In this document: positions 8,588 through 56,082 of the stretch, piece after piece
Position numbering within the stretch: position 1 is the first letter of the stretch
How the letters are laid out: the number at the start of each line of letters is the position of its first letter
Made by a program: the position numbers and the translations under genes
Notes under the pieces: model-generated
Told to the model about the DNA's origin: nothing
Seen by the model: the letters and a program-made list of their open reading frames with translations, nothing else
Database searches by the model: none
Origin: a virus
DNA: 64,000 nt
Virus record (IMG/VR): IMGVR_UViG_3300010346_000749
Span: 1 to 64,000 of that record
Reading direction: 5' to 3' (one strand)

Positions 8588-8812
8588 ATGTGGGAAGATC
8601 ACGGATGCAGATAATAGGCGTGGTCAAGAATTGGTGTGGTGGCGGGTTCTGCCAATTCACTTATTATATCTTTTTATATTTTCCGAGCGAGTTTAATAAA
8701 TAATTGATTTAATATTAAGACATTCAATATATTGAATGGGTTCCAAACAAAAAATTAATTGATATTAAATCATTAAAATTGTTTGTTAAATTCAAAAGAT
8801 TCAAAAGCTTCA

Positions 8813-8940
8813 AAAGCAACTGGAATTGGCTTAACGCCTGACCAGATAAAGGGCATTTTGGTGTTCCCATTAAAAATAAGGGTTTCCTAAAGAAACCAAA
8901 CTTTTTAAGAATCTCATTCCTTTAGGATGAGAGTATCAAT
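8813..8940 (+). ncRNA. conserved structured intergenic element, copy 2 (3' modules)
   Basis: AAGCAACTGGAATTGGCTTAACGCCTGACCAGATAAAGGG...GGGTTTC-CTAAA-GAAACC...AAGAATCTCATTCCTTTAGGATGAGAGTATCAAT closely matches 12296-12413. Confidence 0.55.
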
Positions 8941-12051: not shown

Positions 12052-12153
12052 TCTAAAAAGAGTTTAGAAATAAGAAATTAATATGTGAAATTGAGGAAGA
12101 AACCTTTACTGATGTTGCTAAAATTTTCTATCTTAAAGAAAATTATAATTTTA

Positions 12154-12413
12154 GCGAACGGGAAAACTACCATCTTTAGGTGGTAGATGAAAGTGAGTTA
12201 ATTATTTGATATTCAGACTGTCAAACGACAGGGTTTCAAACACACAAATTTAATAAATATCAAATAATAATTAATTCACATCCTAATAAAGCAACTGGAA
12301 TTGGCTTAACGCCTGACCAGATAAAGGGTATTTTGGTATACCCATTGAAAATAAGGGTTTCTACGAAACCAAACTTTTCAAGAATCTCATTCCTTTAGGA
12401 TGAGAGTATCAAT
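12154..12413 (+). ncRNA. conserved structured intergenic element, copy 3 (expanded form)
   Basis: Same 5' and 3' modules as 1993-2145, plus an inserted long hairpin (GTTAATTATTTGATATT pairs with AATATCAAATAATAATTAA) and an extra helix; ends 45 nt before the ATG at 12459. Confidence 0.55.
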
Positions 12414-33802: not shown

Positions 33803-34116
33803 TGATTAATGATCCGATCATTAGAATGATTCCAAATGATTATTATGATAAAATTAAGAAGAAGTTAAAAGGTCAGAAACGTTGCCATGGTTTAATTGTT
33901 CCAAATGATTTTGGAAGAACTCTAACATCTTTTGATGTAGAATTGTTGCAATCTATTCCAATTGATCTTTTAAAAGAAGTAGGCGAATCTCTTAATATGA
34001 AACCATTAATGGTTGTTGATGGGTTATTTAATAATTCATTTTCAATCAAAAAAGATTTGGTTTTTTTAAATGATTTGTCAAATTGCCAAGTAGTGGAGGA
34101 AAACTTTCATGGCTAA
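33802..34116 (+). CDS. hypothetical protein
   Basis: 104 aa, GTG start sharing one nt with the preceding TAG; overlaps the next ATG. Confidence 0.45.
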   Translation: MINDPIIRMIPNDYYDKIKKKLKGQKRCHGLIVPNDFGRTLTSFDVELLQSIPIDLLKEVGESLNMKPLMVVDGLFNNSFSIKKDLVFLNDLSNCQVVEENFHG

Positions 34117-37100: not shown

Positions 37101-38980
37101 TTGAATTAAAGGTTGTTGATGCATCACAAAATAAATCCACAATCACTTTGAATTGTAGTGGCATCAATAATAAGATTAGAAACATTTTAGTCAACAATAA
37201 AAGAATGGATGATAGTATTTTTGGTATTTCACCATTCATGAATCAGTCCAATCCTTTTTATGTTCAACCTTTTAAAGTAAATGAATCCAGAATTCTGAAC
37301 AATGTTTCGATTCTTTCAACATTTCTTGATTTTTCGAGGCCAATTGTTATTAGTATTCAAGAATTTGAAAATGGTAAGCCTGGTAAAATTCTTACTCAAA
37401 AAATCATTTCAAAGGAATCTGATGTTTCAATTACCAATGTCATTAATAGTTTAACACCGATACAAAAGATGAATGTCATTTTTAATCAACCTGTAATTTT
37501 AAGACCTGATCAAACATATTGTATTGGTATTAATTCTAGTTCACCTTTGTTGAATATTGGTATCATCCAAAAAGGTCAACCATCAATTTTTAATAATTTG
37601 ATGATTACTAATCTGACACAAAATTATCCTCTTCGTCAATTGTTAGATGAGGATTCTTATAAGGTTCTTGAGAATATGGAATTGTCATTTAATCTTGGAG
37701 TAAGTTCTGTGAGTGCTCCTGTTGTTAATGGATTTTATCAATCAGAAATTGTTTTTAAGGAAATCGAATTTCAGCCATCAGATAGAGGATATCATTTCTC
37801 TGTATTGATTGATGATTTGAATTATTTTGACAACCAAACAAAAGTTGATTATTATTACACCGTTGAAACTGAAAGCACTCCTGCTGGTGTGTATGGAACA
37901 ATTTGGGAACAATTTTTGCCGTATACTGTAATTCAGAATAATTCAAAAATCATTAAACTTCAGATTAAAGCTGTATTAAAAACAAAGAACATTAATTATT
38001 CTCCAAGTGTTCACTTGTATCCATCTGTGGTAATTTATAAATATAAATCATCTTCTAACTATATTTCAAAAGCTTTTGAATTGTTTGAAAATAATGCTGA
38101 CAACGTTAAAATTTACTTTGATGCTTATTTGCCAACTGATAACCTTTTAAAGATTTACGTGTCTCCAAATGATTCAAGTGATTGGAGAGAAATTGATTAT
38201 TCAAATGAAATTTCAAAATCAAATGGAACATTTGCCAAGTTTACATATCTGACAAAATTGTCATTGTTGAAACCAAACATTTTAGAAATTTCAAAAGATG
38301 GTTCGGGTAGTTTAACGGGTAAGTATTATTATCGAGTGGCTTTGTTAGATAGGGATGGATTTGAAATTGGTTCTGAATTAGTAGAAATTAATGGATGTTC
38401 GAATAATTCAGTGAAGTTAAAAATACAACCAGATAAAAACATGTATGGTTTTAAAGTTTATAGGGGAATTACTTCTATTCAATTGAATCAGATTTATGAT
38501 TCAACATCACATGCACTGTTAATACAAAATCTGGATAATCAATCAACAACAGTATTCTTAGATACAAATAAACTCATTGATTTCCCAAATTCTGGTAAAA
38601 TTAGAATTGACAATGAAATTATGACATTTACAAAATCTGGAAATGCTTTAACAGTTGTTCGTGGGTCTGATTCAACCAGAATTGAAAAACATGATGCCAA
38701 TGGTGTCAGAGAAGCTTATTTGTGGGATCACGGAACAATTATTCAGGAATCATTAAATGGTCAATGTCCATCATTAATACAAGATGGAAATATATTCTAT
38801 TTCAATTTTGTTGATAATGGTTCAAAATATTCTACTAATACTACAAAGGTATTTGTTCCTTCATCTACAAACCAAACTTCTATTTATCCCAAGTATATTT
38901 TGGTGAAGATTCAAATGATTAATAATTTGTTAAAAGATACTCCTTTAATCAAGAACTTGATTGTCAATGCCTTGGTTTAA
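34109..38980 (+). CDS. giant distal protein, family member 2, N-terminal LamG-like lectin domain
   Basis: 1623 aa. LamG-type pattern (IYLDNKKIDSIELPF...IFIGSLGD...GKIFEVGIWDRELFNEEIQDL), then family motifs NFNRPGAHRLSYEY, SLETEA and LKGTFTDSLADY. Confidence 0.7.
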   Translation: MAKYLKLASLTGNPLYVYDSRYQSDTSHYEADLIKLSGIDKYVFMDDDETKVFSVFANWIPTTCSISLKLQFNPLLLSKDFSLFGYGNDLNLSNSWGLFVKENKFQLLISNGLNYLTVVFPSFTFDNNFDFAKKYNLTFIQNAKTATIYLDNKKIDSIELPFSLVSSQINSKIFIGSLGDITRYDAFMGKIFEVGIWDRELFNEEIQDLTNFRIQDNPALQTNVKKIKIYQGKIYYEGIFHNVPESSVYIQCQGLETVDLCINEKIITENDDPDLLDSSVDYFNFNRPGAHRLSYEYQVVRNANPQNYDIVITLLKFLDGVKIFDLLEEQNGKTESNVVVPTPESLPDNLAEIVMDITGNFIVEGLDVSMVQGVDKYTLTLNPGKYYLNGKKYQLSSQRTFDIPKQFQTQKVYGEPVKYIENDTYRINKQPLTKSSTPEIVIPVVERNVMITKGIPGGQDSIQGFGNIIKLLKVQDTTTYLEEGNTSITPSCQLTGNKIDWSLPGNEPSEGSTYTANFIYNKLLIEGKDYYRCLGNKVQKEIVSYNASNLYPVYYEPEFIVRIKNGSMIFDNDDVVITGKTISFKNHSSLNNTQPIEIIYSFSSHSFFKNKWSIYFDPTSNEFNANYWGYINYDYDLADIYTLAIFGNNSIGLVKGLSGNLDTVSKANIDKNSLPITDILIDSSSFSENNSIKKYEWNRTPISQVVENLRRTERLEERVILSSLETEASSYASADILKGTFTDSLADYNYSNIYHPEFTGHIDMIDSLGNLCSGLEKKVFQTVGNANARFKEFGYMPIVSQQNNETIQISDVLKFGSNTESTFKSISVYNDYDYISESNDQWPQKFVDNILFNRRPIIPSTINTQSTNGMDIQNQSYLKSITEKLNKMVQWSSFKMTNKELILVGINHNSSESNLSVLVGNKEVQLEQVSLLFDNIKQQFYVPNVQTTTSTNKTVYIYEPIQSGSGWIVQDNKITCNLNGEFVVKVKLEGLNISTGLVELKVVDASQNKSTITLNCSGINNKIRNILVNNKRMDDSIFGISPFMNQSNPFYVQPFKVNESRILNNVSILSTFLDFSRPIVISIQEFENGKPGKILTQKIISKESDVSITNVINSLTPIQKMNVIFNQPVILRPDQTYCIGINSSSPLLNIGIIQKGQPSIFNNLMITNLTQNYPLRQLLDEDSYKVLENMELSFNLGVSSVSAPVVNGFYQSEIVFKEIEFQPSDRGYHFSVLIDDLNYFDNQTKVDYYYTVETESTPAGVYGTIWEQFLPYTVIQNNSKIIKLQIKAVLKTKNINYSPSVHLYPSVVIYKYKSSSNYISKAFELFENNADNVKIYFDAYLPTDNLLKIYVSPNDSSDWREIDYSNEISKSNGTFAKFTYLTKLSLLKPNILEISKDGSGSLTGKYYYRVALLDRDGFEIGSELVEINGCSNNSVKLKIQPDKNMYGFKVYRGITSIQLNQIYDSTSHALLIQNLDNQSTTVFLDTNKLIDFPNSGKIRIDNEIMTFTKSGNALTVVRGSDSTRIEKHDANGVREAYLWDHGTIIQESLNGQCPSLIQDGNIFYFNFVDNGSKYSTNTTKVFVPSSTNQTSIYPKYILVKIQMINNLLKDTPLIKNLIVNALV

Positions 38981-38998: not shown

Positions 38999-41900
38999 AT
39001 GAAATCAATTATGGATGCTACTAGGAAGCCGTATTATGATTCATCGGCTGAAGAAATAAGTAAAGGATATGTCAAATTATTGTCAGTTCCCGGAAGAACA
39101 TTACAAAATAGAGAATTGAATGTAATGACCGGATTGACAATGGAACATATCAAAAATATTGGGGATAACATTTTAACAAATGGAACGGTTGTGTCTGGAT
39201 GCTCTTTCTTTCTCCGAGAAGATATAGGGAGAGCATCCCTTTCCAATGGTAAAATTTATGTTGATGGATATATCATTGATATTCCGAATGCTGAATGGCC
39301 CATTGAAGATGTTATTGAAGGTGTCAAATTTATTTGTGTTGAAATCCATCAAATGGCAATTACCGAAGAAGATGACCCATTATTAAAAGACCCTGCTGAA
39401 AAGTATGAAAACTATGGTGAACCAGGCGCTCATAGATTGAAAATTATTTCTGTTCCATTAATCTTTACGGAAGAGGAATTGAAAATTGCTCAGTCTGGTT
39501 CCAGAAGAATCATTGATATTTTGAAATTGATTAATGGGCGTCTTATTGGCCCAACTAAACCAAAACCTGCTTTTGGTAAAATGTATGATTATCTTGCTCA
39601 TAGAACATTTGATGAAGTTGGCAATTTTATTGTCAAGGGAATGAAAGTTTCCTGTTCTTCTGATGAATCAACGATTGAAAGATACAAGATCAATATTACT
39701 CCCGGCAGAGCTTATGTAATGGGATATGAATACAGTTATGATAATCAAAATATCAAAAATAAATCTGCCATTGATAGTAAAAATTCAACAGTTGATGAAG
39801 TGAGAACATTTACTTCTTCGGTTAAAGAATATAAACTGTTTAAACCAAATGTCAAGCTTATTGAAAAAATTCAATGTCAAGTTCGAAATAATAACTTCCA
39901 AGTTATTCGATCAGTTTCAGGCTCCATGTCTGATATTTTGAAACTTGATTCTGTAAAAGAAATTCATCAGATTTTTCAAGGGAATAATGTTTATGTAAAT
40001 GGAAGAGATTGGACAAGGGATGGTAATTCAATTGTGTGGTTATCATCAAATAGACCTGCTTCTGGTTCAACATTCTTTGTTGATATTTCCTATATAAGAA
40101 GATATTATGAAGGTGTTGATTATTCTCTTTCTGTTGATGATGACAATTATACCATCATAATGTTTCAAGTTGATCCAGAAGAAAATTCGGATTTTACCAT
40201 TACTTATACTTGGTATCTTTCACGTTATGATTTAGTTTATATTGACATTTCTGGTGAGTTAAAAGTAATTTCTGGTATTGCTGGTGAAGAGTGGGAAATA
40301 ACAGTTCCACAAATTCCAATTAATACTCTTCCATTGGCTTATATCTATGTCAAACCAGGCAAACAACCATCAAGTTATTCAGTTCAAATGTTTAATATTT
40401 ATAGAGTTTCGGTTGTTGATCAAAGAGCCAATATTGATAGACTTAACAATTTGGAATTCAATTTAGCTATGACAGCACTTGAAACAGAAGCCCAAAAGAT
40501 ACATGAACAGAAAGATGAATCACAATCAAGTGGTAATTTAAAAGGTATTTATGTTGATTCATTTGCTGATTTTTCAAGATCAGACTATTATCATCCTGAT
40601 TATAGAGCAGGCATTAATATCTTTGAACAAGAATTAAGATTACCACTGGTTTCTGAAATTCTTGGTGTTAAGGAAATTGAAAACAATCAAATCATTGATA
40701 CATCCTCTACTACATTCAATAATGATTATATGATTTCTCTTCCTTATTCTGAAATGGCAATTGACTGGCAAAGATATGCAACAGATTCAATTGATTTGAA
40801 TCCTTATAATTTGATTCCATTGAAACCAATCTTGGAAGTTAAACCGCCATATTCAGTAAAGATTGAAGAACGTATTGCTAGAGATACAGAAGTTATTTTA
40901 CCATTAAAGACATTTATGTCAAGTTCAACAATTCGAAATTCTACATCAAGAACCGTTAGCACATCAACAACGGTTGGAAGTGGAAATACTGTTATTAGTA
41001 GTTGGAGTTCTGTTTCAACATCATCAACAACTTCAACATCAACTTCAAGATCAGTTAAAAATGAAACATTTAAAAATATTTCAATGAAATTTCTTGAGGA
41101 TTTAGATACTGGATTGATGCCACAAGAAACATTGAGAATCAAGGGAAGGAATTTTATTCCATTTTCAGAAGTGCGATTGAATTTTAATGATGTTTTAATT
41201 ACTTCTTTCAATCTCTTGCCAAATATGGGCACTGTCGGAAGTTTGCCATATCAGATTAAAACAAATAGTCGTGGGGAATTCGAATTAGATTTCAAAACGC
41301 CTGTTGCAACATCAACTGGAACAAAGTTGATTATGGTGGCTGAATATAAACAAATCAACAATGTATGGCAATCAACTGACACTGTTGCCATTACTTCTTA
41401 TACTGGACTTTCTTTTATTCGTGAAATGGAAAGAATTACAGAAGTTCAGAACATTCAAAGAATCTACGATACTATGTATATCAACACTTTGAATACTACA
41501 ACTGTTAGTGTTGTTAATCAATTAGGATGGACATGGCGAGGCGATCCATTGGCACAATCTTTCTGGTTTGATGAAGATACATTCATTTCAAGTTTTGATT
41601 TGTTCTTTGAATCAAAGCCTGAAAATCCAGAGATTAAAGAAATTTGGTATATGATTAGGGAAATATCTGGTGGGGAACCAAATGGCCCAATTCTTTATAG
41701 ATCAACTTTGCGATGGGAAGATATTAAAACTTCGCCAGATGCAACAATTCCAACAAACTTTAAATTCAATTTCCCAATATATTGTCAACCTTCAAAAGAA
41801 TACGCTTTGATTGTTGGCTGTGATAGGCCGGGATATAAGATTTATTTTGCTAAGATGAGTAATAAAGATATCATGACAAATACTTTATTACAGTCTCAAA

Positions 41901-42331
41901 CACATAAGGGAACAATGTTTACATCTTCAAATAATGTTTCATGGACGACACATCAAGACCAAGACTTAACATTTACACTCTATCGTGCTAAATTCAATCC
42001 GATTGGAACATTGCTATTTAAACCATTGTCATTATCTCTTGGGAAATTTTCACTCATGAATATTTCATTTGATTCTATCGTTTTGGAAGAGACAGAAATC
42101 AAAACAACATACCAAATTAATAATAAAGAATGGTATATTTGTCCATTGTCCGAATCAATTTCAATAGAATCGAATTATGATGACAGACAAGATATCATTT
42201 TTAAATTCGAATTGTCAACTTCTGATGATAGAAAGACACCATTTATCAATTTAAATACTCTTTCAATGTTGTTTGCTAAATATGGATTGACTGGGTCTTA
42301 TATTATGAGAAGCATGGAAATTCCAAATTAA
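38999..42331 (+). CDS. giant distal protein, family member 3, with Ser/Thr-rich linker
   Basis: 1110 aa; KGYVKLLSVPGRTLQNRELNVM, NYGEPGAHRLK, ALETEA, LKGIYVDSFADF; STSRTVSTSTTVGSGNTVISSWSSVSTSSTTSTSTSRS linker. Confidence 0.7.
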   Translation: MKSIMDATRKPYYDSSAEEISKGYVKLLSVPGRTLQNRELNVMTGLTMEHIKNIGDNILTNGTVVSGCSFFLREDIGRASLSNGKIYVDGYIIDIPNAEWPIEDVIEGVKFICVEIHQMAITEEDDPLLKDPAEKYENYGEPGAHRLKIISVPLIFTEEELKIAQSGSRRIIDILKLINGRLIGPTKPKPAFGKMYDYLAHRTFDEVGNFIVKGMKVSCSSDESTIERYKINITPGRAYVMGYEYSYDNQNIKNKSAIDSKNSTVDEVRTFTSSVKEYKLFKPNVKLIEKIQCQVRNNNFQVIRSVSGSMSDILKLDSVKEIHQIFQGNNVYVNGRDWTRDGNSIVWLSSNRPASGSTFFVDISYIRRYYEGVDYSLSVDDDNYTIIMFQVDPEENSDFTITYTWYLSRYDLVYIDISGELKVISGIAGEEWEITVPQIPINTLPLAYIYVKPGKQPSSYSVQMFNIYRVSVVDQRANIDRLNNLEFNLAMTALETEAQKIHEQKDESQSSGNLKGIYVDSFADFSRSDYYHPDYRAGINIFEQELRLPLVSEILGVKEIENNQIIDTSSTTFNNDYMISLPYSEMAIDWQRYATDSIDLNPYNLIPLKPILEVKPPYSVKIEERIARDTEVILPLKTFMSSSTIRNSTSRTVSTSTTVGSGNTVISSWSSVSTSSTTSTSTSRSVKNETFKNISMKFLEDLDTGLMPQETLRIKGRNFIPFSEVRLNFNDVLITSFNLLPNMGTVGSLPYQIKTNSRGEFELDFKTPVATSTGTKLIMVAEYKQINNVWQSTDTVAITSYTGLSFIREMERITEVQNIQRIYDTMYINTLNTTTVSVVNQLGWTWRGDPLAQSFWFDEDTFISSFDLFFESKPENPEIKEIWYMIREISGGEPNGPILYRSTLRWEDIKTSPDATIPTNFKFNFPIYCQPSKEYALIVGCDRPGYKIYFAKMSNKDIMTNTLLQSQTHKGTMFTSSNNVSWTTHQDQDLTFTLYRAKFNPIGTLLFKPLSLSLGKFSLMNISFDSIVLEETEIKTTYQINNKEWYICPLSESISIESNYDDRQDIIFKFELSTSDDRKTPFINLNTLSMLFAKYGLTGSYIMRSMEIPN

Positions 42332-44866: not shown

Positions 44867-45086
44867 TGAAAGGAAATTCAAGAGGGAAGTTAAGAAAAGA
44901 GACCCTATTAGTGGGGCTATCATATATGAACAGACGGCTGAAGAGAAATTAACAGAGAATTTAAGATTAGAGATTAAAACATTAAAAAAAGAAGTTTCCA
45001 ATCTTAAAGACTTTCGGGTTCAATCCATAGCTTTGATACAACAATTGACTGAACGAATTGATAAATTGGAAAATGGGGGTAATTAA
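44832..45086 (+). CDS. coiled-coil ORF without an ATG, overlapping the end of 42344-44866 in the +1 frame
   Basis: 84-codon open frame; no in-frame ATG (TTG at 44832); the start or a frameshift origin is unresolved. Confidence 0.3.
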   Translation: MCQKHLCLICYNERKFKREVKKRDPISGAIIYEQTAEEKLTENLRLEIKTLKKEVSNLKDFRVQSIALIQQLTERIDKLENGGN

Positions 45087-45331: not shown

Positions 45332-47107
45332 ATGGCTGAAATTGTAAAAGTTTCAAATACAATGGAAGAATTACGACTTCTATTAAATAAATTCTTTGGT
45401 AATTATTTTAATGATTCGACATTCCCATTAGACGACGGGATTATGACAATTACTTATAATCCAACATCCAAATTAGCTGAATTGAAAATCAATATTAATG
45501 GAACTCCTGTTTCTTTAATTCAAAAAAATGTTGAAAATAATACAATTGAATTTCCATTTCCAATCAAGGCTGAAGAATTGGAAGTTGATAGATTAGTTGT
45601 TAAAGAACAGATCAATCAAAAAGAAGTTGAATTTTTAAAAATACAAGATAAAGAAATTATTCTAAACGATGGATTAACAGGAAATAATGATTTGAGTGCC
45701 ATTGGTAATGCTATGATTTCTGTTAATCGTGGTTCATTACCAAAAGTAAGTATGAAATGGAATGAAATTACAAACACTTTTGAATTTACCAATGATGGTG
45801 TTAATTTCAGTCCTTTCTTAACAAAAAATGCTAATGGATATGATTTTACAAAATCCAATGGTATTGTTCTCAAGATTGACACTGGATTGAAAATTGAGAA
45901 TACGTCTTTTCAATTGGTTTTCAAAAGTGGTCAATGGTATATCACTGATAATGTTAATGGTGAATTTCCGTTAGTCCCTTCTGCATCACAAAAGTTTGCT
46001 ACACAACAAGAAGTAAATACAGGTGTTGTAAATGATAAATCTGTTGCACCAAACACACTAAAAGTTTATGTTCAAAATCAAATTCAAACTGCTGTAGATA
46101 ATCTACCTGATCCTCCTACAGTTCCAACATTTGCTGATAATGCAGAATCTTTGGCGGGAACAGTAGATAATAAAATTATTTCTCCAAAGACATTGAAACA
46201 TGTTCTTGACAATACGGTTGTATCTGGTGGTGGCGGAAGTTCATATATTACTCTTCTTCATACTTCTAATACGTTGGAAACATTGTCTAATGAATATAAT
46301 ATCATGGCTGTTGGCTATTTCATTTCTCAAAAGTCTAGACATTCACAGACATTAAAATTGTATCTTGAAAGATTTAATACATTCAAACGTTCGAATCGTT
46401 TACATTCCGATGGAGCCGTTACTTCATCAACTCCAGTGCCACAATCTGATATTAAAATTACTGTTGAAGATTCTGATGGCCATATTATTACAGTGGAAGA
46501 AAACAATATTGACATAATGAGTGGTTCAGATTTAATCTATAAGATTTATGAATTGAATTGTAATACTTTGAATGATAAAGATTTGTGGACTATTAAAATT
46601 TATGGCAAAACTAATAATTCACTTTCTGAAACAATCTATCTAAATATTGCTAGATGTAAATTGTATTCAGTTCCTTCTTATGACTGTTCTGTCAATGGTA
46701 TGATAACCGTATCTCCTAAAATTGATTTCAATAATGTTGGTTCATATCAATTAGTAGATACAAAATATGTTTTAGCACATCAATTTTTTGGTGATGCAAA
46801 TGCTGCTCTTGAATTTGTCTGTAAATTGAATTATTATATCAGTCATGTTCTTTCTAACGATACACAATTTGATCCTATTGTGAAAGTTCTTGTTAAAGCT
46901 GAACATCCAGCTACAAAAGAAATAATTATAGAATCAATTGAAATGAATGTGAAAAATAATAAATCAGGCAAAATTTCTATTGGTAGAATACCATATCCTG
47001 ATGCTCCTGCTTCATATTTAACAGTTGAAATATATGTTAAAAATAATATTTTGCCATTACAAGGGTATGTCGAATTGGAGCATTATGAATTAAGGATGTT
47101 GAGTTAA
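45332..47107 (+). CDS. tail fibre protein
   Basis: 591 aa with two copies of the fibre-type repeat (ATQQEVNTGVVNDKSVAPNTLK and ADNAESLAGTVDNKIISPKTLK); RBS GGGAG. Confidence 0.65.
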   Translation: MAEIVKVSNTMEELRLLLNKFFGNYFNDSTFPLDDGIMTITYNPTSKLAELKININGTPVSLIQKNVENNTIEFPFPIKAEELEVDRLVVKEQINQKEVEFLKIQDKEIILNDGLTGNNDLSAIGNAMISVNRGSLPKVSMKWNEITNTFEFTNDGVNFSPFLTKNANGYDFTKSNGIVLKIDTGLKIENTSFQLVFKSGQWYITDNVNGEFPLVPSASQKFATQQEVNTGVVNDKSVAPNTLKVYVQNQIQTAVDNLPDPPTVPTFADNAESLAGTVDNKIISPKTLKHVLDNTVVSGGGGSSYITLLHTSNTLETLSNEYNIMAVGYFISQKSRHSQTLKLYLERFNTFKRSNRLHSDGAVTSSTPVPQSDIKITVEDSDGHIITVEENNIDIMSGSDLIYKIYELNCNTLNDKDLWTIKIYGKTNNSLSETIYLNIARCKLYSVPSYDCSVNGMITVSPKIDFNNVGSYQLVDTKYVLAHQFFGDANAALEFVCKLNYYISHVLSNDTQFDPIVKVLVKAEHPATKEIIIESIEMNVKNNKSGKISIGRIPYPDAPASYLTVEIYVKNNILPLQGYVELEHYELRMLS

Positions 47108-48184
47108 ATGAGTAATAGTAATGGATTCTTAGAATTAACAGATTTTAATTATTATAATATGATGAGACTGGGGCAGGCGAACTCCATCTGCAACAGGCGG
47201 GTGCATGCGCCGGCGCAGGTGTTCGGCGTTATGGACACAGGGACGCGCAGCGTCAACGGAGCCGGTTTGGAGTGGATCGACGAAAACGGAAACATCATCA
47301 CGCTGACCAAGGCGGACTTCGACGCACACCCCGCATTCAACTTCCCAGAGGTAATTGTGGGCGGAAACAGTTTCCGAAGCATTCCCATCGCCTACTGGAA
47401 GCGCGGCATAGGGCCGATCGGAAGCCACGCGGCTGGCAAATGGTGTATGTGGATCTCCGACGTTCCCCTCGACGGCTTCACCGCGAATCCGGGGGCGTTT
47501 AAGAGAAATGGGTCATGGCTCGATCGGTTCTTGTTGGGAACCTACAGGGCATTCAATAACGGCGGCGCGCCCGGTAGTCAGCCGGGAAAAACGCATTGGG
47601 GCAACGTGAGTTGGCAGGCGTTTAAAGACGCGGCCGCTGGGATCGGCGAAGGTCATCACATGATCAGTCTCCAGGAATGGCACGAGATCCTCGGCAGAGC
47701 CGTAATTGAGCAAAAAACCTTCCAGCTCGTACCGGAGGCAAGCCGCCAGAACGCTTCGCTGTGCAAGTATAGAGGCATAGAAGAATTTGCGTTTGACGGC
47801 TCGTACGGCTCGACGCACGCCGAATGGATGGACGGTGCGCGAACAGACGCAAGTGGGAAGTACGAGCTTTGGACTGAAGCAGGCGGGGATTACTCCTCGA
47901 CCGGAGTGACGTGCCCGCAGGACAGCGCGAGCGAAGCGACCTACTACAATCAAGGGCTTGTCACCGGCGGACTTTTCGATCATCTTTTCCTTGGGGCCTC
48001 CCTCGGTCCGGCATCTACGAGCTTTATCCCGGACTTCTCTGGGCGGAATCCGGGGCTCGTCGGCCGCATTTGCCGCTCGCACTTCTACGTCGGTCACGCG
48101 AGCAACGGTGCTTTCCACTCGTACTTCAGCGACTTGCCGTCGCTCGTCGACGCGAAGATCGGGTCCCGCCTCGCGAAGTGGTAA
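47108..48184 (+). CDS. receptor-binding-type protein with C-type-lectin/FGE-like fold, encoded by a G+C-rich insert
   Basis: 358 aa. The first 19 codons are AT-rich like the phage and the rest is abruptly G+C-rich. VSWQAFKDAAAGIGEGHHMISLQEWHEIL fits the FGE/CLec core W-x-x-A-x(7)-G-x-x-L-x-x-x-x-EW. The C-terminal IGSRLAKW resembles the GFR ending of DGR variable proteins. Confidence 0.6.
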   Translation: MSNSNGFLELTDFNYYNMMRLGQANSICNRRVHAPAQVFGVMDTGTRSVNGAGLEWIDENGNIITLTKADFDAHPAFNFPEVIVGGNSFRSIPIAYWKRGIGPIGSHAAGKWCMWISDVPLDGFTANPGAFKRNGSWLDRFLLGTYRAFNNGGAPGSQPGKTHWGNVSWQAFKDAAAGIGEGHHMISLQEWHEILGRAVIEQKTFQLVPEASRQNASLCKYRGIEEFAFDGSYGSTHAEWMDGARTDASGKYELWTEAGGDYSSTGVTCPQDSASEATYYNQGLVTGGLFDHLFLGASLGPASTSFIPDFSGRNPGLVGRICRSHFYVGHASNGAFHSYFSDLPSLVDAKIGSRLAKW

Positions 48185-48417
48185 TTCGGCCTTGGGATCT
48201 CGACTTTCTTTCCACCATTCTGCCGCTCGTCGTACATGAGATTGGACATTGGCTCGTGGCCCGGACACAGGCTGTGCTTCCATTTCGGTTGGGGCGCCTG
48301 CTCGGCGTGAGGCCTGCCACGTGTCCTGTGGACGATGCCGCCATGACCGTCACAGACGTGGAAGCGATGCATACAGCGGGGCACAATCATATAAGTAATA
48401 TAAAAATTTATAATTTT

Positions 48418-48437
48418 AACGAACGGGAAAACTACCA
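48418..48437 (+). repeat. copy of the 5' end of the structured intergenic element at the right edge of the G+C-rich insert
   Basis: ATAATTTTAACGAACGGGAAAACTACCA (48410-48437) matches ATAATTTTAGCGAACGGGAAAACTACCA at 12146-12173. Confidence 0.6.
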
Positions 48438-48448
48438 CATTTTGGCAC

Positions 48449-48685
48449 GTGAGTACATCTCCAGTGGCGGCCACAGTCTGGCTATCTGTTTATCGGGCTA
48501 CGACATTCGCCACAAACAAGGTTCGATTACAAACAAGAAATGCATACCCCGAGTGGCGGTTTATAAATGCAGAATTGTCAGTGAGTGTAAATACGACAAA
48601 TGGCATAGATGGTGATTGGATTACTATAAAAACAGGTATATCCATGAATGCGACGGCTGGTGGATGGATTGATATAGACATTTGA
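48449..48685 (+). CDS. beta-sandwich-like gene fragment (possible displaced C-terminus)
   Basis: 78-codon frame with GTG start, intermediate G+C; ...YPEWRFINAELSVSVNTTNGIDGDWITIKTG...GGWIDIDI resembles the end of a discoidin-type domain. Confidence 0.35.
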   Translation: MSTSPVAATVWLSVYRATTFATNKVRLQTRNAYPEWRFINAELSVSVNTTNGIDGDWITIKTGISMNATAGGWIDIDI

Positions 48686-48777
48686 TTAAATTTAGAAATA
48701 GACCCTTAAACATTGTTATCGTAAAATCTTAAAAATGAGAATTTTTAAACTGTATAATCAAAGGAGGTTGATTAAAA

Positions 48778-49290
48778 ATGTCAATTCGTGATGGTTTTAT
48801 TTCATCTTCTGTGATGGAGGTGTTGTTGCGGCAACCGAAGGTGGATGTTTCGAAGGTGGAAGTTTCATCTGTTTTTCCCCCTGTTATTGATTTTCAATTT
48901 TACTGCACTGGTGCATCCAGAACTTCTAATTATTGTGTAGAGTGTAGTCATGATGGTATCAACTGGACAAACATCAGCGGAGACAAAACGAGTCTTGTTC
49001 CTCTGACGTGGGCCTGGGCGGGGACTGGTGGCTTCCCCGCGACTTCGGCTCGTTTTTGGAGGTTAAGGGTTAAAGGATCACCCGTTTTAGGCGGGACTTG
49101 GAAAACAGAACTACGATTGCTATTGGAAGATGGGAATGGCTATACGCCAACCTTGGCACAATTATCAGAAGTAGGGATTACATATAACACTGGGTTCAAT
49201 AAATCACATCTAGTGAATGGAAACTTGGACGAAAATGTGTTTTATACTGGAACAACCAATATGACTATCACCATTGATTTAGAAGCATAA
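48778..49290 (+). CDS. discoidin (F5/8 type C)-like carbohydrate-binding protein
   Basis: 170 aa, RBS AAAGGAGG; ...SHDGINWTNISGD...SARFWRLRVKG... is the pattern also seen as NLNWSLAAG...KYWRFRVE in 49431-52871. Confidence 0.5.
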   Translation: MSIRDGFISSSVMEVLLRQPKVDVSKVEVSSVFPPVIDFQFYCTGASRTSNYCVECSHDGINWTNISGDKTSLVPLTWAWAGTGGFPATSARFWRLRVKGSPVLGGTWKTELRLLLEDGNGYTPTLAQLSEVGITYNTGFNKSHLVNGNLDENVFYTGTTNMTITIDLEA

Positions 49291-49370
49291 AGGGAGCGTG
49301 AAAACATGGCACGAGTTTCAAACGTTTCAACCACGGTTATCAGCGCCATCAAAAACTATTCATTCATCTG

Positions 49371-49407
49371 ATATAGGCATCAAATATTGGTGCCTATATC
49401 AATTTTT
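49371..49407 (+). terminator. intrinsic terminator-like hairpin
   Basis: ATATAGGCA-TCAAATATTGG-TGCCTATAT followed by CAATTTTT. Confidence 0.55.
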
Positions 49408-49430
49408 AACAAAATGAAAGAAGTGATAAA

Positions 49431-52400
49431 ATGAATTTAAATGGATTAAAATTCTATGATCATTCACCAGATAAATTGAATTCATTTTTACGTGAAAATT
49501 ATTTACATGGGAAAAATATTGAACATGATATTCCCATTGTAGAAGATGATCCCTATAAGATAACGAGCGATACAGTTTTTCTTTTGAAGTTGAATAACAC
49601 AAGAACAGATGAATGTGGAAATATTTGGACATTTTCTGTTCCACAAACATTTGCCGCAACCCCGTTGCCACCTATTAGTGGGATTACTCATGTATTAAAT
49701 TATTCAACATTCAATAGTAGCTATGTTGAATGTACAAGTTTAGCAGGAAATGCTATTGGAACAGGTGATTTCACTGTTGATTTTTGGGCATATACTTCTG
49801 GCCAAACTCCGGATTTTTACCCTTTTACCTGTATTGGTCATTATAGTGGACCAAATCATAGTGGATCATTAGTAAATAGATTTGGTTCAGTATTTTATTC
49901 TAATGGATATGGTCTTTGGTGTGAACGTACAAAAGCAAAAAATCTTAATCATTGGAGGATGTTGTCAGGATGGCATCATTATGCTATTGTCAGAAGATCA
50001 GGAGTCGGATATCTCTATAGAGATGGAATTGAACTAGAACAAATTGCTGATTATACTTTTTCGGCTTTATCTGGATTTTCGTTCGGAGCTTATTCAACCG
50101 ATGTTCTTGAACCTGTTTTATTAAGTCATTATCGTCTTTCTAGAACAGCATTATGGAATGCCAATTTTGTTCCTCCTGGCGTTAAGGTTCAAGGAAAAGA
50201 ATATGCTCCTACTAAATTCGGAATGTCATATAGTGGCAGTTCAACTGCAAATGAAGTTTGGTGTGTTGAATATTCGGATGATAATCTAAATTGGTCTTTA
50301 GCTGCAGGAAGATTTAAACCAAATCAAGCTGGTTGGAATTACATAACATGTCCTAATTATGGGAATAAGAAATACTGGAGATTTAGAGTGGAAACACAAT
50401 CGAATGGTGAATATCTGAATGAGGTTTCAATTGGAAACGGACAGAAAAAACAACATGTGAATAAAAGAGGGCCATGGAAAGCTTTTAAGATTGTTGGTAT
50501 GTCTCAATATCATACCACCAACAACTGTTATTATATTCAAAACGGAGAAACGCAATGGATAGAAACCGCTGGTGGAACTACTCAATGCACAGGTGGAACT
50601 CCTTTTGCTTCTAGTAATGATAAATATGATCCAATTGCAAAAGCATTTGACTCATACATATCAACGTATTGGTTAACACAAGCCTCAGCTTCACCATCAG
50701 AAATTACGGCAGGATATATTCTCTCAACACCAAAGAAACTTTATTCGATCAAGCTATACCCGAGGGGTAACTGCTCTTGTATGAATTGGAAAAATTTTAG
50801 TATTTATGGAAGTAATGATACAACAAACGGAACTGATGGGACGTGGTATTTATTATTAGATAATCAAACAACTTCATCGACAGTCGATGAATGGTCGGAA
50901 CACATTATTCCTGATGTTATTATTCCTGATGTTATTGGCTTTACCTATTCTCTTTCAACAGACTGGATAACATCAAATATTTCTGGAACTCTAGCAAATC
51001 TAATAGATGGAACAACTGGAACAACACAGGCGGTTTGTCAAAATCAGCCCGTTAATACCCACATAACATTTGATTTTTCTCAACAAATTTTTCCAACTGA
51101 AGCAACAATTACAGAATGGAGTAAACTGAAACACACGAACAAACTCAAATACTGGTGGCCATTGAATGATAAACCAGACGAGGTTATGCAATATCTAAGG
51201 TGTCTGGTTCATGGGACTGTTCCATTTGATCAAGATTATGGTGCTCAATTTTCAAATGAAACCTGTATCACTACTGATATTTTAACGATGCCAACAAAAC
51301 TAACACTTCTCTGGTGGATGAGACCAGATTCAACAATGTTCAATTCTGGCAATATTACCGATCCTATTGGTGCACCATCTGGAAGTGCTACAACTGGTTA
51401 TCATTGGGGCCCAAGGTATGAAGCAGCAGGAAATCTTGTTCAATTCAATGGTGGCACTTCATGGCCTACAAATTCATCCGAATTTAACACAACAAACTAT
51501 CCTACAACTAGACTAACACTTTGTGCCTTGGTCTTGAATAGAAACGGGTCATCTTCGACAGTTTCATACTATCGAGCTAATTCAACAAATACTGCTATGG
51601 TTCAAGTAGGATCAACTACTACTTACACTGATGCTACTCCTAGAACTCTCTTTTCTATTGGGATGTCAGAAAGACTAGCTGTAAATCTTGTAGATCAAGT
51701 TAAACATTTCAATGGATATATTAGAGATGTCAGAATTTATGAAAGAATTCTTTCCTTGGCCGACATTGAACTGATACGAGCTGCTGGCCCAGTAAATGAT
51801 TTCATTTCAGAAACAGAAGAACCATTAGATTCATATAAGTGTATTAAATTTCTTGGGACGTATAATACAACTAATGATGGTTGTGGAATGAATGAAATTG
51901 AAATTCTTCCTGTAGTTGGTGGTACTGATCAGTGTGAAGGTGGAACTATTTTAAGTAGTGGAGATTTACCAAATTATAGTAAAGAATTCACATTTGATGA
52001 TTTGATAGGATCGCCAACACAAGTTTGGTATGGCCCGAATAGTGGAACTTCTGCCTGGATTGCATATAAAAAAGATGCCGGTATTATTCCAAAAGTTATA
52101 AGATTTTATGGTGAAAACTGGGGCGACCCAACAAGATACCAATTCAAGAATATGCAAATCCTTGGAAGTAATAACACGACGACTGGTTATGATGGAGATT
52201 GGGAAATACTTGGGAATACTGGTAAAGTATATCATCAAGAATGGAAGAATTACACTATTATTAAAAGAAAAACATTAGCATTTTCTTTTGATTCCTTTTT
52301 AATTCACAAATGGTTATTGACAAACAATGGTAATGATGCTATTGGTAATTGGAATTTTCCTAGGAATTTTGTTAATAATGGAGCAGTCTCTTTTGGTAGT

Positions 52401-52871
52401 GATGGTGCTGTATTTAGTGGATCAAATTATTTAAATCTAGCTTCTATTACATTGCCAACAGCTTTTACAATTTGTGGATGGGTTAAAATTAATACATCTG
52501 CCACTTACAATAATATATTCGGATTAGTTGATTCTCGAGAAATGACTTATGCATTTGAAAATGGCGTTGCAAGACACCAATGTTGTGGCATTGAAGTTAA
52601 TACGACAGGCACAATAACTCTTTCAAATTGGACATTTATAGCTATGGGAACTAATGGAACAAATTTAACATTTAAATTTTTCAATGGTTCATATTGGTCT
52701 TCAACTTCTGTTGGTGCAATAAGAACATATTCAAATTGGCAAGTTGGTCGAGGTTTTTGGGTTGCTAATGATTATTTAAGAGGAAATGTAAAAGACCTTC
52801 GAATATATTCATCTTGTCTTACATCAGACAACTTAATACAGATACTATTAGCTGGCCCAAGTTTAAATTAA
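49431..52871 (+). CDS. multi-lectin-domain fibre/receptor-binding protein (LamG-like and discoidin-like modules)
   Basis: 1146 aa; three LamG-type segments (for example FTVDFWAYTS...WHHYAIVRRSGVGYLYRDG, and GYIRDVRIYERILSLADIELI) interleaved with discoidin-type segments. Confidence 0.6.
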   Translation: MNLNGLKFYDHSPDKLNSFLRENYLHGKNIEHDIPIVEDDPYKITSDTVFLLKLNNTRTDECGNIWTFSVPQTFAATPLPPISGITHVLNYSTFNSSYVECTSLAGNAIGTGDFTVDFWAYTSGQTPDFYPFTCIGHYSGPNHSGSLVNRFGSVFYSNGYGLWCERTKAKNLNHWRMLSGWHHYAIVRRSGVGYLYRDGIELEQIADYTFSALSGFSFGAYSTDVLEPVLLSHYRLSRTALWNANFVPPGVKVQGKEYAPTKFGMSYSGSSTANEVWCVEYSDDNLNWSLAAGRFKPNQAGWNYITCPNYGNKKYWRFRVETQSNGEYLNEVSIGNGQKKQHVNKRGPWKAFKIVGMSQYHTTNNCYYIQNGETQWIETAGGTTQCTGGTPFASSNDKYDPIAKAFDSYISTYWLTQASASPSEITAGYILSTPKKLYSIKLYPRGNCSCMNWKNFSIYGSNDTTNGTDGTWYLLLDNQTTSSTVDEWSEHIIPDVIIPDVIGFTYSLSTDWITSNISGTLANLIDGTTGTTQAVCQNQPVNTHITFDFSQQIFPTEATITEWSKLKHTNKLKYWWPLNDKPDEVMQYLRCLVHGTVPFDQDYGAQFSNETCITTDILTMPTKLTLLWWMRPDSTMFNSGNITDPIGAPSGSATTGYHWGPRYEAAGNLVQFNGGTSWPTNSSEFNTTNYPTTRLTLCALVLNRNGSSSTVSYYRANSTNTAMVQVGSTTTYTDATPRTLFSIGMSERLAVNLVDQVKHFNGYIRDVRIYERILSLADIELIRAAGPVNDFISETEEPLDSYKCIKFLGTYNTTNDGCGMNEIEILPVVGGTDQCEGGTILSSGDLPNYSKEFTFDDLIGSPTQVWYGPNSGTSAWIAYKKDAGIIPKVIRFYGENWGDPTRYQFKNMQILGSNNTTTGYDGDWEILGNTGKVYHQEWKNYTIIKRKTLAFSFDSFLIHKWLLTNNGNDAIGNWNFPRNFVNNGAVSFGSDGAVFSGSNYLNLASITLPTAFTICGWVKINTSATYNNIFGLVDSREMTYAFENGVARHQCCGIEVNTTGTITLSNWTFIAMGTNGTNLTFKFFNGSYWSSTSVGAIRTYSNWQVGRGFWVANDYLRGNVKDLRIYSSCLTSDNLIQILLAGPSLN

Positions 52872-53940: not shown

Positions 53941-56082
53941 ATGTTATGGATTAGTCTATTTGTTGTTATTAGTATTGTGTTGTTTATCTTTCTAATTATT
54001 TTAAATGTGGGGAATATACAAAAGACCAATCATAAAATAGATGATTTAGAACAACTTGAAAAGAAAAAACTTGAAATGAAAGAATTAGAAGACCATCTTA
54101 AAAAATTAGCTGAAATCAATATATCTTACTCTAAAGAATTGGATACATTTACTGAATTTCATGAAACCGTTTTAAAAAAATCATCTGATTTAGAGTTGCA
54201 ATTCAAAACTCTTTTTAATAATTCTCCAATTGGAATATGCCGAGTGTCTATAAGTGGAAAATATATTTACGCAAATTCTGCTTTAGCTAGAATGTTAGGC
54301 TATTTTGATGCCACTGAATTGACAAGTCTTGTTCAGAATACATCAGAACAAATATTTATGTTTCCAGATGAACGAAAAAGAGTTATTAAAAAACTTTCCA
54401 TTAAACCTTATGAACCAGTTTTAATTGAACATGAATTAAAAAAGAAAAATGGAACTTCCATATTTACAAGATGCAAGTATATGGGAGTATTAAATGAAAG
54501 AGAACAATTATCTTATATGGATGTTATAATAGAAGATATTTCTGATTTAAAGAAAAAAGAACAAGAGTTATATGATCAAAATGACATGATCATGGAATTA
54601 TTAAAAGAACAACAAGAAATGAATGATCATTTAGACAAACAGGTTAAAGAGAGAACAAAAGAATTAGAGAAAAAGAGATATGAATTAGAAAAGATGAATC
54701 ATGAATTATTAAAAATGAAAAATCTTTTTGAGAACATGTATAAGAAAGCTCCAATTGGATTATTTAGATCAAGTATTTCAACTGGCAAATTTCTTTCTTG
54801 CAATGATGCAACTGCTCATATATTTGATGTAAGAAATGCTGACGAATTTCTTAAAATAGTTAATGCTTTAGATATTTGGGGAAATAAAAAAAGAAGAGAT
54901 GAATTAATAGAACATTTTAAAAATCTTCCTTCAATGACTACCTATAATCATATTGATTATTGCCAAACACCAATATCTAAAAAAGAAAGATATGTATCTG
55001 TTTCAGAACTTGCCAATTTTGATGATGATTATTTTGAAGGAGCATTTATTGATGTCACGGAAGAGTATTTAGCTAAAAAGAAACTGGAAGAAATGAATAA
55101 AAATTTAGCTAAAATTGTTAATGAAAGAACACACAATCTAATTGAACAATATGCTTATACTCAACAATTAATATCAGAATTGGAAGAATCAAATAATCTT
55201 CTCAAAATAAAAACAAATAATCTTGAATTAAATCAATTAAAATTAAAATCTATCATAAAAACAATTCCTGACAGTATTATTGTTTGCAAAATAAATGGTA
55301 AAATAACCGAATCATATAATATTCCAATGAATTTATTTCATGGGGATCCAATCGATTCAATTTTATCTTTATTCAATTTAGATAATTCTTCTTATTTAAT
55401 AAAATGTTTTGAAAAAATTATTCAAGAACATCATCCTGAAATTCAAAGTGGTATGATAAAAGAATTATTTAATAATCAAATCAGTTGGTTTGAATATAAT
55501 ATTTTTAAAATGAATTCCGATCATGTTATTTTAGTTTTTAGAGATATTACTTCGAGAATGCAGACAAAAACATTATTAGATTCAATATTACAGTCAACAC
55601 AGATTCTTTTAACTAAGAAGCCTTTTGAATGTGCTTTGTATGAATCTCTTGAATGGTTTGGTAAACTCAACAATGTTCAACGGGTATTTGTTTATAAAAA
55701 TGAGGAAGATTCCTATATGAGTTCATTGGTATCAGAATATCATGAAGACCATCTTTTTGATTTAAACAAAGATCAAAATAGACAATTGGATTATCTAAAA
55801 ATGTCTAATGACCTTTCAATTTATAATCAATTAAAACAGGGGAAATGTGTTGAATTTATTATGAAAAATGAAGACCATGAAAAAATTCCAATAGTTGAGA
55901 GATTGAAACATAAAGGAGTTAAATCTATTTTATGTGTTCCTATTATTTTTCAATTGGATTTCTTAGGATATTTAGGAATTAGTGATTATGTATCAGATAG
56001 GATTTGGTCAGAGACTGAAAAACAAACATTATTGACATTTGCAACTAACATTGGTTTGATGATGGAAAAGGAGAATTTTTGA
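53941..56082 (+). CDS. membrane-anchored sensor protein: TM, coiled coil, three PAS-like domains, C-terminal GAF; no output domain
   Basis: 713 aa. N-terminal TM LWISLFVVISIVLFIFLIILNV. PAS starts at LFNNSPIGICRVSISGKYIYANSALARMLGY, MYKKAPIGLFRSS and IIKTIPDSIIVCK. GAF-type ending CVPIIFQLDFLGYLGISDYVSDRIWSETEKQTLLTFATNIG. Confidence 0.7.
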   Translation: MLWISLFVVISIVLFIFLIILNVGNIQKTNHKIDDLEQLEKKKLEMKELEDHLKKLAEINISYSKELDTFTEFHETVLKKSSDLELQFKTLFNNSPIGICRVSISGKYIYANSALARMLGYFDATELTSLVQNTSEQIFMFPDERKRVIKKLSIKPYEPVLIEHELKKKNGTSIFTRCKYMGVLNEREQLSYMDVIIEDISDLKKKEQELYDQNDMIMELLKEQQEMNDHLDKQVKERTKELEKKRYELEKMNHELLKMKNLFENMYKKAPIGLFRSSISTGKFLSCNDATAHIFDVRNADEFLKIVNALDIWGNKKRRDELIEHFKNLPSMTTYNHIDYCQTPISKKERYVSVSELANFDDDYFEGAFIDVTEEYLAKKKLEEMNKNLAKIVNERTHNLIEQYAYTQQLISELEESNNLLKIKTNNLELNQLKLKSIIKTIPDSIIVCKINGKITESYNIPMNLFHGDPIDSILSLFNLDNSSYLIKCFEKIIQEHHPEIQSGMIKELFNNQISWFEYNIFKMNSDHVILVFRDITSRMQTKTLLDSILQSTQILLTKKPFECALYESLEWFGKLNNVQRVFVYKNEEDSYMSSLVSEYHEDHLFDLNKDQNRQLDYLKMSNDLSIYNQLKQGKCVEFIMKNEDHEKIPIVERLKHKGVKSILCVPIIFQLDFLGYLGISDYVSDRIWSETEKQTLLTFATNIGLMMEKENF

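Follow-up and report, generated by a model that had tools for sequence, protein, structure and literature searches.

A 1.2-kb island of G+C-rich DNA in an otherwise A+T-rich phage genome encodes most of a predicted tail-fiber tip protein, whose C-terminus is a variable region (VR) of the kind written by diversity-generating retroelements (DGRs). The island lies in a 64,000-nucleotide stretch of viral DNA (positions 1 to 64,000 of IMG/VR record IMGVR_UViG_3300010346_000749; hereafter, “the window”). The reading that we favor, with a probability of roughly 70% as a whole, is that this receptor-binding tip was captured from Synergistota-type temperate phages and that its VR is now a frozen DGR product; the capture is very probable when taken by itself, and so is the origin of the VR from a DGR. 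The features that matter for this reading are as follows (CLec, C-type lectin; FGE, formylglycine-generating enzyme; ORF, open reading frame; TR, template repeat; GC3, G+C at third codon positions; IMH, initiation of mutagenic homing):

47166..48390, no strand: G+C-rich island, ~1.22 kb, ~60% G+C, from windowed composition
47108..48184, + strand: tail-fiber tip/adhesin ORF, 358 aa, made up of a native N-terminal peptide and a foreign receptor-binding domain with a predicted CLec fold
47108..47165, + strand: native AT-rich 5′ end, ~19 codons (GC3 of 0.20; 93% identity with the sister phage described below)
47213..48184, + strand: predicted CLec/FGE-like fold domain, residues 36 to 358, from an AlphaFold2 (AF2) model and Foldseek
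48061..48177, + strand: DGR variable region, 117 nt, residues 319 to 357, from an ungapped alignment to the TR of relative L015 (positions 3386 to 3502; 87% identity)
48161..48184, + strand: G+C-rich 3′ end of the VR and VR/TR divergence point (IMH-like: GGGTCCCGCCTCGCGAA|GTGGTAA), from comparison with relatives

Composition and boundaries of the island

Windowed composition (200 nt) changed from 0.28 to 0.33 G+C at 46800 to 47199 to 0.55 to 0.63 at 47200 to 48399 and was back at 0.30 by 48600. Every 1-kb stretch in the rest of the window was ≤0.374 G+C, and no second 300-nt window with a G+C of ≥0.5 was found in the remaining window or in ~31 kb of adjoining genome. Codon usage followed the same pattern, with a GC3 of 0.73 in the island ORF compared with 0.17 to 0.20 in neighboring genes and 0.20 in the ORF's own first 20 codons. 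A first-pass annotation of the window, made from its letters alone, had described an abrupt G+C-rich insert starting at ~47166, unlike anything else in the stretch, that continued past the stop codon and then ended sharply. Both measures bear this out, with a jump from ~0.28 to ~0.60 G+C and a measured end at 48390, 206 nt beyond the stop codon of ORF 47108 to 48184. In the GenBank phage collection no match was found for the island (distant mode) or for 25 kb of the window (near mode).

The same island was recovered in other samples. European Nucleotide Archive (ENA) assemblies L001 and L002 were 99.95% identical to the window across 18 kb, both junctions included, and their sole intragenic difference from it is a synonymous C/T at 48001. 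Two more contigs encode the same or a near-identical protein (P0267 and P0268), and a homology search returned gene call P0001 (start at M19) on three contigs. A diverged sister phage (L003, L004, L005/L035, L038, and L045; contigs from six samples) carries the same AT-rich N-terminal peptide, left junction, G+C-rich tail and right junction; the shared junctions are 88% identical to those of the window and sit within flanking DNA that is 92 to 94% identical. The ORF frame runs unbroken across the left junction. The island is not a chimera, because independent assemblies share identical junctions, and it is thus confirmed as real and not an assembly artifact.

The variable region and its high-GC relatives

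Compared with the L015 TR, the window VR has 15 mismatches, and because 13 of these sit on TR adenines (2 elsewhere), with adenines occupying 30 of 117 positions (hypergeometric P = 1.5 × 10−7), the last 39 codons are identified from sequence as a genuine DGR variable region. This TR belongs to another genome, and the comparison speaks for descent, not for current service. L015's own VR differs from the L015 TR at 17 A sites and nowhere else, and the ratio of A-site to non-A mismatches against the common TR was 20:0 in L033, 19:0 in L040, and 19:4 in L016. The AAC codons of the TR read CGC, CAC, TAC, AGC, GAC, and CTC in the window VR, the variable codons being NNC, and outside the A sites only 2 of 87 scaffold positions depart from the widespread TR type. 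In the family alignment, the scaffold reads GRxC.S.F..G.A..GAF.S.F...S....IGSRLAKW, with hypervariable positions interspersed. Cassette-bearing relatives have exactly the same IMH-like VR end and the same point of VR/TR divergence. The C-terminal NNC stretch, which the first-pass annotation had likened to a DGR target, is thus given bounds (48061 to 48177) by alignment to a real TR, although an NNC-rich CLec C-terminus alone does not prove an active DGR.

At the protein level, the domain is 85% identical to P0003 (locus L015), 84% identical to P0273, and 65% identical to P0006 (locus L017, in an Aminivibrio metagenome-assembled genome [MAG]). The figures for Aminivibrio/Synergistaceae-type prophage genes (84 to 85% protein identity and ~86% DNA identity) agree with the high-GC donor that had been proposed from composition. 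Downstream of both P0003 and P0006 lie bAvd (PF22296), an intergenic repeat that is the TR, and then a reverse transcriptase (RT) of the RVT_1 family (PF00078), and it is through these two proteins that the domain is homologous to the target of a DGR cassette. Both loci belong to temperate phages with integrase and lysis genes. Similarity to the high-GC loci L015, L017, and L016 begins at ~47209 to 47222 by blastn (47213 by tblastn) and continues through the stop codon and ~16 nt further.

VR/TR-type DNA was also sought with a degenerate sequence pattern. Across GTDB genomes and JGI metagenomes, VR-plus-TR pairs or all-AAC TR types were found only in the high-GC L029, L030, L031, L037, and L039, with VR and TR ~597 to 610 nt apart in the first four, while in the low-GC contexts L035 and L038 there was only a VR. 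No TR-type sequence in a low-GC context was found in the JGI metagenomes, and the pattern had 0 matches over IMG/VR. Donor-type (L041) and recipient-type (L035) contigs co-occur in metagenome Ga0116160, and other contigs are labeled activated sludge or bioreactor.

Several further members of the donor pool are worth recording. The VRs of L033 (477 to 593), L040, L036, and L032 differ from the common TR type at adenines only (in L033, at 20 A sites and 0 non-A sites). In L033, no avd or TR is present in ~1.1 kb downstream, where a DUF4376-type gene and an HExxH gene are found instead, and contigs L032, L036, and L040 end 63 to 643 nt after the VR, too short to show a cassette. P0273 (from ENA) is a 591-aa donor-type tail-fiber allele with a very different VR on a 1.65-Mb contig (1,651,807 nt); it probably sits in a prophage of a bacterial chromosome and could identify the host of the donor. 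The 90%-identity cluster of P0009 also lists many proteins of 130 to 131 aa, including P0274 (locus tag ACOYJV_09330), the gene adjoining the Aminivibrio target, where bAvd was called; this mixture looks like a clustering oddity of the protein collection.

The tail-fiber tip protein

The ATG of the ORF directly abuts the TAA of the fiber gene at 45332 to 47107 (591 aa). The ORF itself was correctly recognized in the first pass; the overlap of its start with the fiber stop was not borne out, the two codons being adjacent. Public gene calls place the start at 47108 (P0267 and P0002) or at M19, position 47162 (P0001). The native ~19-aa peptide is presumed to dock the protein to the fiber.

An AF2 model of the domain built on an 86-sequence alignment (A2) reached a predicted local distance difference test (pLDDT) score of 95 and a predicted template modeling (pTM) score of 0.94; an earlier run on 27 sequences gave a pLDDT of 52. 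The top PDB match of the model in Foldseek was TaqVP of Thermus aquaticus (5VF4; E = 2.3 × 10−8, probability of 1.00, template modeling [TM] score of 0.52), and weaker matches included Mtd (E ≈ 4 × 10−2), PvdO, SenA, FGE (E = 0.5 to 0.7), and C-type lectins. In BFVD, many “tail collar fiber” proteins matched the model (E down to 3 × 10−16, TM up to 0.74). The domain is thus predicted to adopt a CLec/FGE-class fold at the tail-fiber tip, as the first reading of the sequence had supposed. Pfam gave no family at E ≤ 1 for the 358-aa protein, and the domain in distant members of the family was likewise unmatched. With no Pfam match to FGE-sulfatase (PF03781) and FGE structures reaching only the E values above, the protein shares a fold class with FGE yet is not an FGE enzyme. 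Among PDB sequences, a profile search with the protein found no match.

Homology searching found 88 proteins, all without a Pfam domain, mostly in high-GC phage tail modules, and the few bearing a name belong to Aminivibrio and Synergistaceae MAGs. A second, word-indexed search with alignment added three proteins (P0089 to P0091) that are clear family members and not distant ones. An exhaustive profile search gave 464 clusters at 50% identity, and nearly all matches listed reach the C-terminus, behind N-terminal extensions of varying length. A profile scan of IMG/VR gave six loci, all high-GC. On high-GC phage contigs, the homologous gene closes the tail/baseplate module and stands directly ahead of the lysis genes. 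In PHROGs, the protein itself has weak matches to a family of unknown function and a “tail protein” family, while the upstream fiber gene matches “tail collar fiber” families. In both its place right behind a “tail collar fiber” gene and its BFVD and PHROG matches, the protein resembles a fiber tip. From its position, fold, and purifying selection (see below), it most likely works as a distal adhesin choosing the host receptor. Among the DGR variable proteins with a CLec fold, it is a new member that no Pfam family covers.

Two minus-strand ORFs overlapping the island were considered as genes and rejected. For 48094 to 48390 (MIVPRCMH..., Cys/His-rich), a small or HNH-like gene, Pfam was silent, a 1-nt indel in the sister phage breaks the frame, and the 3′ part overlaps the VR; 47513 to 48283 is of a kind expected in G+C-rich DNA.

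DNA after the stop codon

Three further features describe the G+C-rich tail and the return to native DNA:

48185..48200, + strand: first ~16 nt (TTCGGCCTTGGGATCT) of a post-stop element, from comparison with high-GC relatives
48199..48349, + strand: pseudogene remnant, 5′ half of a donor HExxH gene, from tblastx against L041, L011, L034, L016, and L033
48399..48445, + strand: truncated copy of an intergenic element repeated in the phage genome (repeat family D5, alignment A3)

In high-GC relatives, the post-stop element is ~55 nt long, and its remainder, including a CCCCT...AGGGG inverted repeat, is missing in the window. It occurs with or without avd behind it and is followed by avd-TR-RT or by other genes. 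The full element (TTTGGCCTTGGATCC...GCTCCCCTGAGCGATAGCGAAGGGG, with the inverted repeat) lies at 2913 to 2966 of L015, with equivalents in L016, L017, L029, L031, L033, L036, L037, L040, and L041, and is a candidate DGR target-site hairpin or terminator.

The remnant matches the HExxH gene in two frames (LDFLSTILPLVVHEIGHWLVAR and GHRLCFHFGWGACSA*GLPRVLWTMPP*P), has no start codon, contains a frameshift at 48263/48264 and in-frame stops, and ends at approximately codon 50 to 65; the island continues ~40 nt beyond it. The intact protein is ~100 aa, hydrophobic, and membrane-protein-like (MEYxxxLLIPLVHELGHWLAARLFGSRL...PRWTW...), and matches of an intact homolog to Peptidase_M50 and DUF3267 are below threshold. 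The HExxH gene directly follows the fiber-tip gene in L011 and lies somewhat further downstream in L016, L033, L034, and L041. Because the tail is a remnant of this gene, the captured fragment came from a donor arrangement without an adjoining retroelement and brought no DGR machinery with it. The tail, which the first-pass annotation had counted as part of the insert, turns out to be neither VR machinery nor RNA, but a decayed piece of the next gene of the donor. Two other identities were tried and dropped: a structured RNA (no match in Rfam) and an avd remnant (no likeness to the Avd of L015 or L017, or to the intergenic DNA of either, past ~16 nt).

The copy at 48399 to 48445 marks the right-hand return to native DNA, and the sister phage has a full copy there. 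This repeated intergenic element (~170 to 280 nt; window positions 1967 to 2145, 8799 to 8940, 12134 to 12413, and 48399 to 48445; L042:9451-9732; L003:1721-1896) is present in at least five copies in the genome and comprises a TATAAT-like box, a hairpin (CTACCA-TCTTTAGG-TGGTAG), and a second hairpin (CTCATTCC-TTTA-GGATGAG). It resembles the mobile promoter/stem-loop cassettes (PeSLs) of T4-type phages, and it could be a recombination hot spot.

Search for DGR machinery in the phage genome

The portion of the genome covered amounts to ~95 kb, comprising the window and ~31 kb of adjoining sequence. No second copy of the VR region was found in the window by blastn (word size of 7), and when the RT and Avd of L015 and L017 served as tblastn queries against the window and its adjoining loci, the best E value at relaxed thresholds was ~1.6. 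Precomputed Pfam calls of the flanking loci held no RVT_1. In ~1.9 kb on the 5′ side (L021 to L024) and ~29 kb on the 3′ side (L018, L019, L025, and L042), no TR, Avd, RT, or further G+C island was present. The window had been described at first sight as free of an RT or TR, and the same holds for the RT and a near-copy of the VR in the ~31 kb beyond it. Genes in the extension encode lysis functions, a UvsX/RecA-like protein, DnaB, a gp44-like clamp loader, a 5′-3′ exonuclease, and an Mre11-like protein; these and a T4_baseplate domain mark the phage (~30% G+C; from anaerobic digester and sludge communities) as T4-like.

Population variation and history of the domain

All five window-type contigs agree in their VR (in P0268, two amino acids differ in the rest of the protein), and the sister-type VR is identical in six of seven (L003, L004, L005/L035, L038, P0269, and P0271, the last two as protein). 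The population variation looked for at the NNC codons was therefore absent at the contig level, the VR being invariant across the five window-type contigs, and contigs of both low-GC lineages showed no hypervariability of the VR within one population. The remaining sister contig, L045, differs from L003 at 2 of 1,588 nt, an adjacent AA→TG in that VR's one still-unmutated AAC codon (N→C). This change is not a canonical retrohoming event, because the downstream variable codons stay untouched and an AAC-rich TR would re-randomize them. Its location is far from random, and selection on a contact residue or some adenine-directed process could be responsible. Relative to the common TR, the window VR carries two and the sister VR six non-adenine substitutions, none in common, as expected without TR overwriting since about the split of the two phages.

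Synonymous divergence (dS) between window and sister was 0.26 over three flanking genes. In the domain outside the VR, dS was 0.34 and the ratio of nonsynonymous to synonymous divergence (dN/dS) was 0.20 (0.16 against L015), and the non-VR dN/dS of 0.20 marks the domain as functional and under purifying selection. Identity along the domain is mosaic, with some window segments nearer to L015 (91 to 97%) than to the sister phage (83 to 90%), and at its 5′ end the window is closer to the prophage allele P0273 than to P0003. That both phages have the same junctions and the same pseudogene tail speaks for a single capture, which predates the split from the sister phage and is not very recent. Of the earlier description as a recent acquisition from a high-GC donor, the donor thus holds and the recency does not.

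These observations suggest the following history. An A+T-rich T4-like phage would have captured 1.2 kb of DNA from high-GC temperate Synergistota phages of the Aminivibrio/Synergistaceae type. The captured piece would be the C-terminal CLec-fold receptor-binding domain of a tail-fiber protein that is a DGR target in the donors, fused in frame to a native ~19-aa peptide and presumably expressed behind the phage's own fiber gene. The VR sequence is the one that a donor-type TR yields after adenine-specific mutagenic retrohoming. Avd, TR, and RT were not co-captured, the 3′ end of the fragment matching the decaying next gene of a cassette-less donor arrangement. Probably (at about the 70% given above), the VR is now an ordinary fixed sequence whose changes come from point mutations and from recombination with genes of the donor pool.

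Alternative origins of the present variable region

A number of observations weigh against a frozen VR. Window and sister VRs differ at 18 of 30 TR-adenine sites and at 8 of 87 other sites, and after a single capture such differences need recombination with donor alleles, a period of retrohoming, or strong selection; the mosaic pattern supports the first of these, allele replacement by recombination. The L045 change falls on the two adjacent adenines of a VR AAC codon. The perfect A-only VRs of cassette-less relatives suggest that donor-pool DGRs also serve non-adjacent or trans targets. One protein of the phage is also found on a 183-kb NCBI contig labeled “Bacilli bacterium”, and the genome may therefore exceed ~95 kb.

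The strongest competitor to a frozen VR draws on several of these points. It holds that the VR is still being diversified, either by a DGR in the remaining genome or through the action in trans of the Avd, RT, and TR of a resident high-GC prophage during infection of a lysogen. It would account for the IMH-like end and divergence point shared with cassette-bearing relatives, for a scaffold so close to the widespread TR type, for the 18 adenine-site differences, for the L045 polymorphism (the only one in that contig), and for relatives such as L033; the co-occurrence of donor-type and recipient-type contigs in Ga0116160 and a mosaic likeness to donors, implying repeated co-infection, would provide the opportunity. 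Against it, only two VR alleles occur in ~12 contigs of two low-GC lineages, no RT, Avd, or TR was found in ~95 kb, and non-adenine substitutions persist in both VRs, where fresh retrohoming would erase them. The L045 change leaves downstream variable codons intact, unlike 3′-primed retrohoming from an AAC-rich TR (PMC3240598), and most of the conserved post-stop element is deleted in the window. On balance, we consider continued diversification unlikely, though it is the rival to be taken most seriously. Of the two possibilities raised in the first-pass annotation, an orphaned target is thus upheld by the blank search and the invariant VR, and a remotely served one is a minority possibility.

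A more specific form of this rival, which we rate as rather improbable, is that a lytic phage without a DGR retains a VR and IMH compatible with those of the donors, to let the Avd, RT, and TR of host prophages rewrite its receptor-binding site in trans. If true, the phage would borrow another phage's diversity generator, and the 18 of 30 adenine differences and the AA→TG of L045 would be its traces.

It is very improbable that the hypervariable C-terminus is an ordinary fast-evolving, lectin-like loop under diversifying selection and no DGR product at all. The absence of a TR from this genome as seen, a VR dN/dS of ~2 between the sister phages, and the many family members without a cassette within 10 kb would fit such a loop. 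Against this stand the 13:2 bias of mismatches toward adenines of a real TR from a close relative, the same bias in many relatives (L033, L040, and L016), AAC codons in the TR where VRs have NNC, and the bAvd and RT carried by close relatives, and we regard this explanation as refuted in practice. An assembly chimera or contaminating DNA from a high-GC genome, to which the abrupt switch in composition and the lack of a relative in the GenBank phage collection might point, has a vanishingly small probability and was already refuted by junctions that are identical across samples and pipelines (L001, L002, P0267, and P0268) and recur in a diverged sister phage from six samples, together with an ORF that stays in frame over the left junction and is under purifying selection.

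Relation to known systems

The frozen VR that we favor has partial counterparts among described systems. TaqVP shares with the window domain a CLec/FGE-like fold and a C-terminal variable region, but at ~10% sequence identity; it is cellular and served by an adjacent DGR, whereas the window protein is a phage tail-fiber tip with no DGR in reach. The Mtd/BPP-1 DGR (1YU0 to 1YU4; PMC2408619, PMC3240598) is closer in kind. It too acts on a phage receptor-binding fiber tip (here predicted) with a CLec fold, its C-terminal VR derives from AAC codons and has a G+C-rich 3′ end, and its gene order of target-avd-TR-RT is that of the high-GC relatives of the window gene. The structural match to Mtd is weak, however (E ≈ 0.04), avd-TR-RT was not found in the window phage, and the VR is invariant across samples. 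Tentaclins (PMC10743442) were set aside because their CLec domain is N-terminal.

Remote DGR targets, as in Treponema denticola (PMC5758913), likewise are VR genes away from the RT that are recognized by A-to-N-only differences, but they share a genome with their TR and RT, whereas the TRs matching the window VR occur only in compositionally unrelated phages. The survey by Wu et al. (2018, PMC5758913) puts the non-adjacent targets of phage-associated DGRs within ~50 kb and argues against expecting remote ones in phages. It takes a G+C content deviating from that of the carrier genome as a mark of recent lateral acquisition of whole DGRs; horizontally moved DGRs share the atypical G+C of the island, but here only the target binding domain and VR moved, across a gap of ~30 points. 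A large metagenome survey demanded a repeat within 1 kb of the RT and could not detect DGRs acting on non-adjacent VRs (PMC8144416).

Receptor-binding tips are also exchanged between tailed phages by the swapping of T-even gp37/gp38 adhesins. As there, a modular distal receptor-binding part is replaced behind a conserved fiber-docking part; here, the module differs by ~30 points of G+C and contains a DGR-written binding site. The apparently orphaned VR is thus an instructive case across ~30 G+C points, and not a new kind of system.

Other features of the window

To the right of the island, a 4.4-kb segment (48438 to 52823) is absent from L003, where the right-hand repeat runs straight into the equivalent of 52823. 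One of its ORFs, of 170 aa, weakly matches F5/8 type C (discoidin) and includes a second, smaller G+C-enriched patch (0.50 at 48900 to 49199), and a 1,146-aa protein encoded there matches Laminin_G_3; both are probably additional or alternative receptor-binding proteins. Against L001 and L002 (otherwise 99.95% identical), the window shows two tight clusters of four substitutions each, at 44882 to 44894 and 55344 to 55371, and through the first of them (AACATGGCAGTTAAA to AAGAGGGAAGTTAAG) the window lacks the ATG of a 67-aa gene that is predicted in the other assemblies.

Upstream, three consecutive giant paralogs of 1,727, 1,623, and 1,110 aa (28244 to 33427, 34109 to 38980, and 38999 to 42331) all match phrog_877 and phrog_358. 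The 1,110-aa paralog has DUF4815, a domain also found upstream of the fiber-tip gene in the high-GC L008, and the 1,727-aa protein contains a Cys-rich repeat (roughly C-x-C-N-x-R-x-P) encoded by 24-nt tandem units at 31177 to 31470 (family D2). At the 5′ end of the window (32 to 8454), nine tRNA genes (Gln, Pro, Lys, two Ser, Ile-TAT, two Leu, and Cys) stand among duplicated segments. The duplicates include two minus-strand ORFs (1105 to 1854 and 6647 to 7381), Cys-rich paralogs of ~245 aa whose DNA is 78% identical across 300 nt. A short way ahead of these tRNAs and repeats, several assemblies break.

Implications for DGRs and phage host range

If the favored reading is correct, the island is a natural example of a DGR product that can outlive, and travel without, its retroelement: a receptor-binding site (by predicted function) written by adenine mutagenesis would have passed as a module to a lytic phage of unrelated composition and been kept there under purifying selection. 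Surveys in which DGR targets are recognized by their nearness to an RT overlook orphan VRs of this kind. The family of 464 clusters (50% identity) without a Pfam model is a candidate for a new family definition. The island also bears on whether DGRs act in trans between co-infecting phages, and it ties a 30%-GC T4-like phage to the phage gene pool of 55 to 60%-GC Synergistota, which provides a testable clue to its host.

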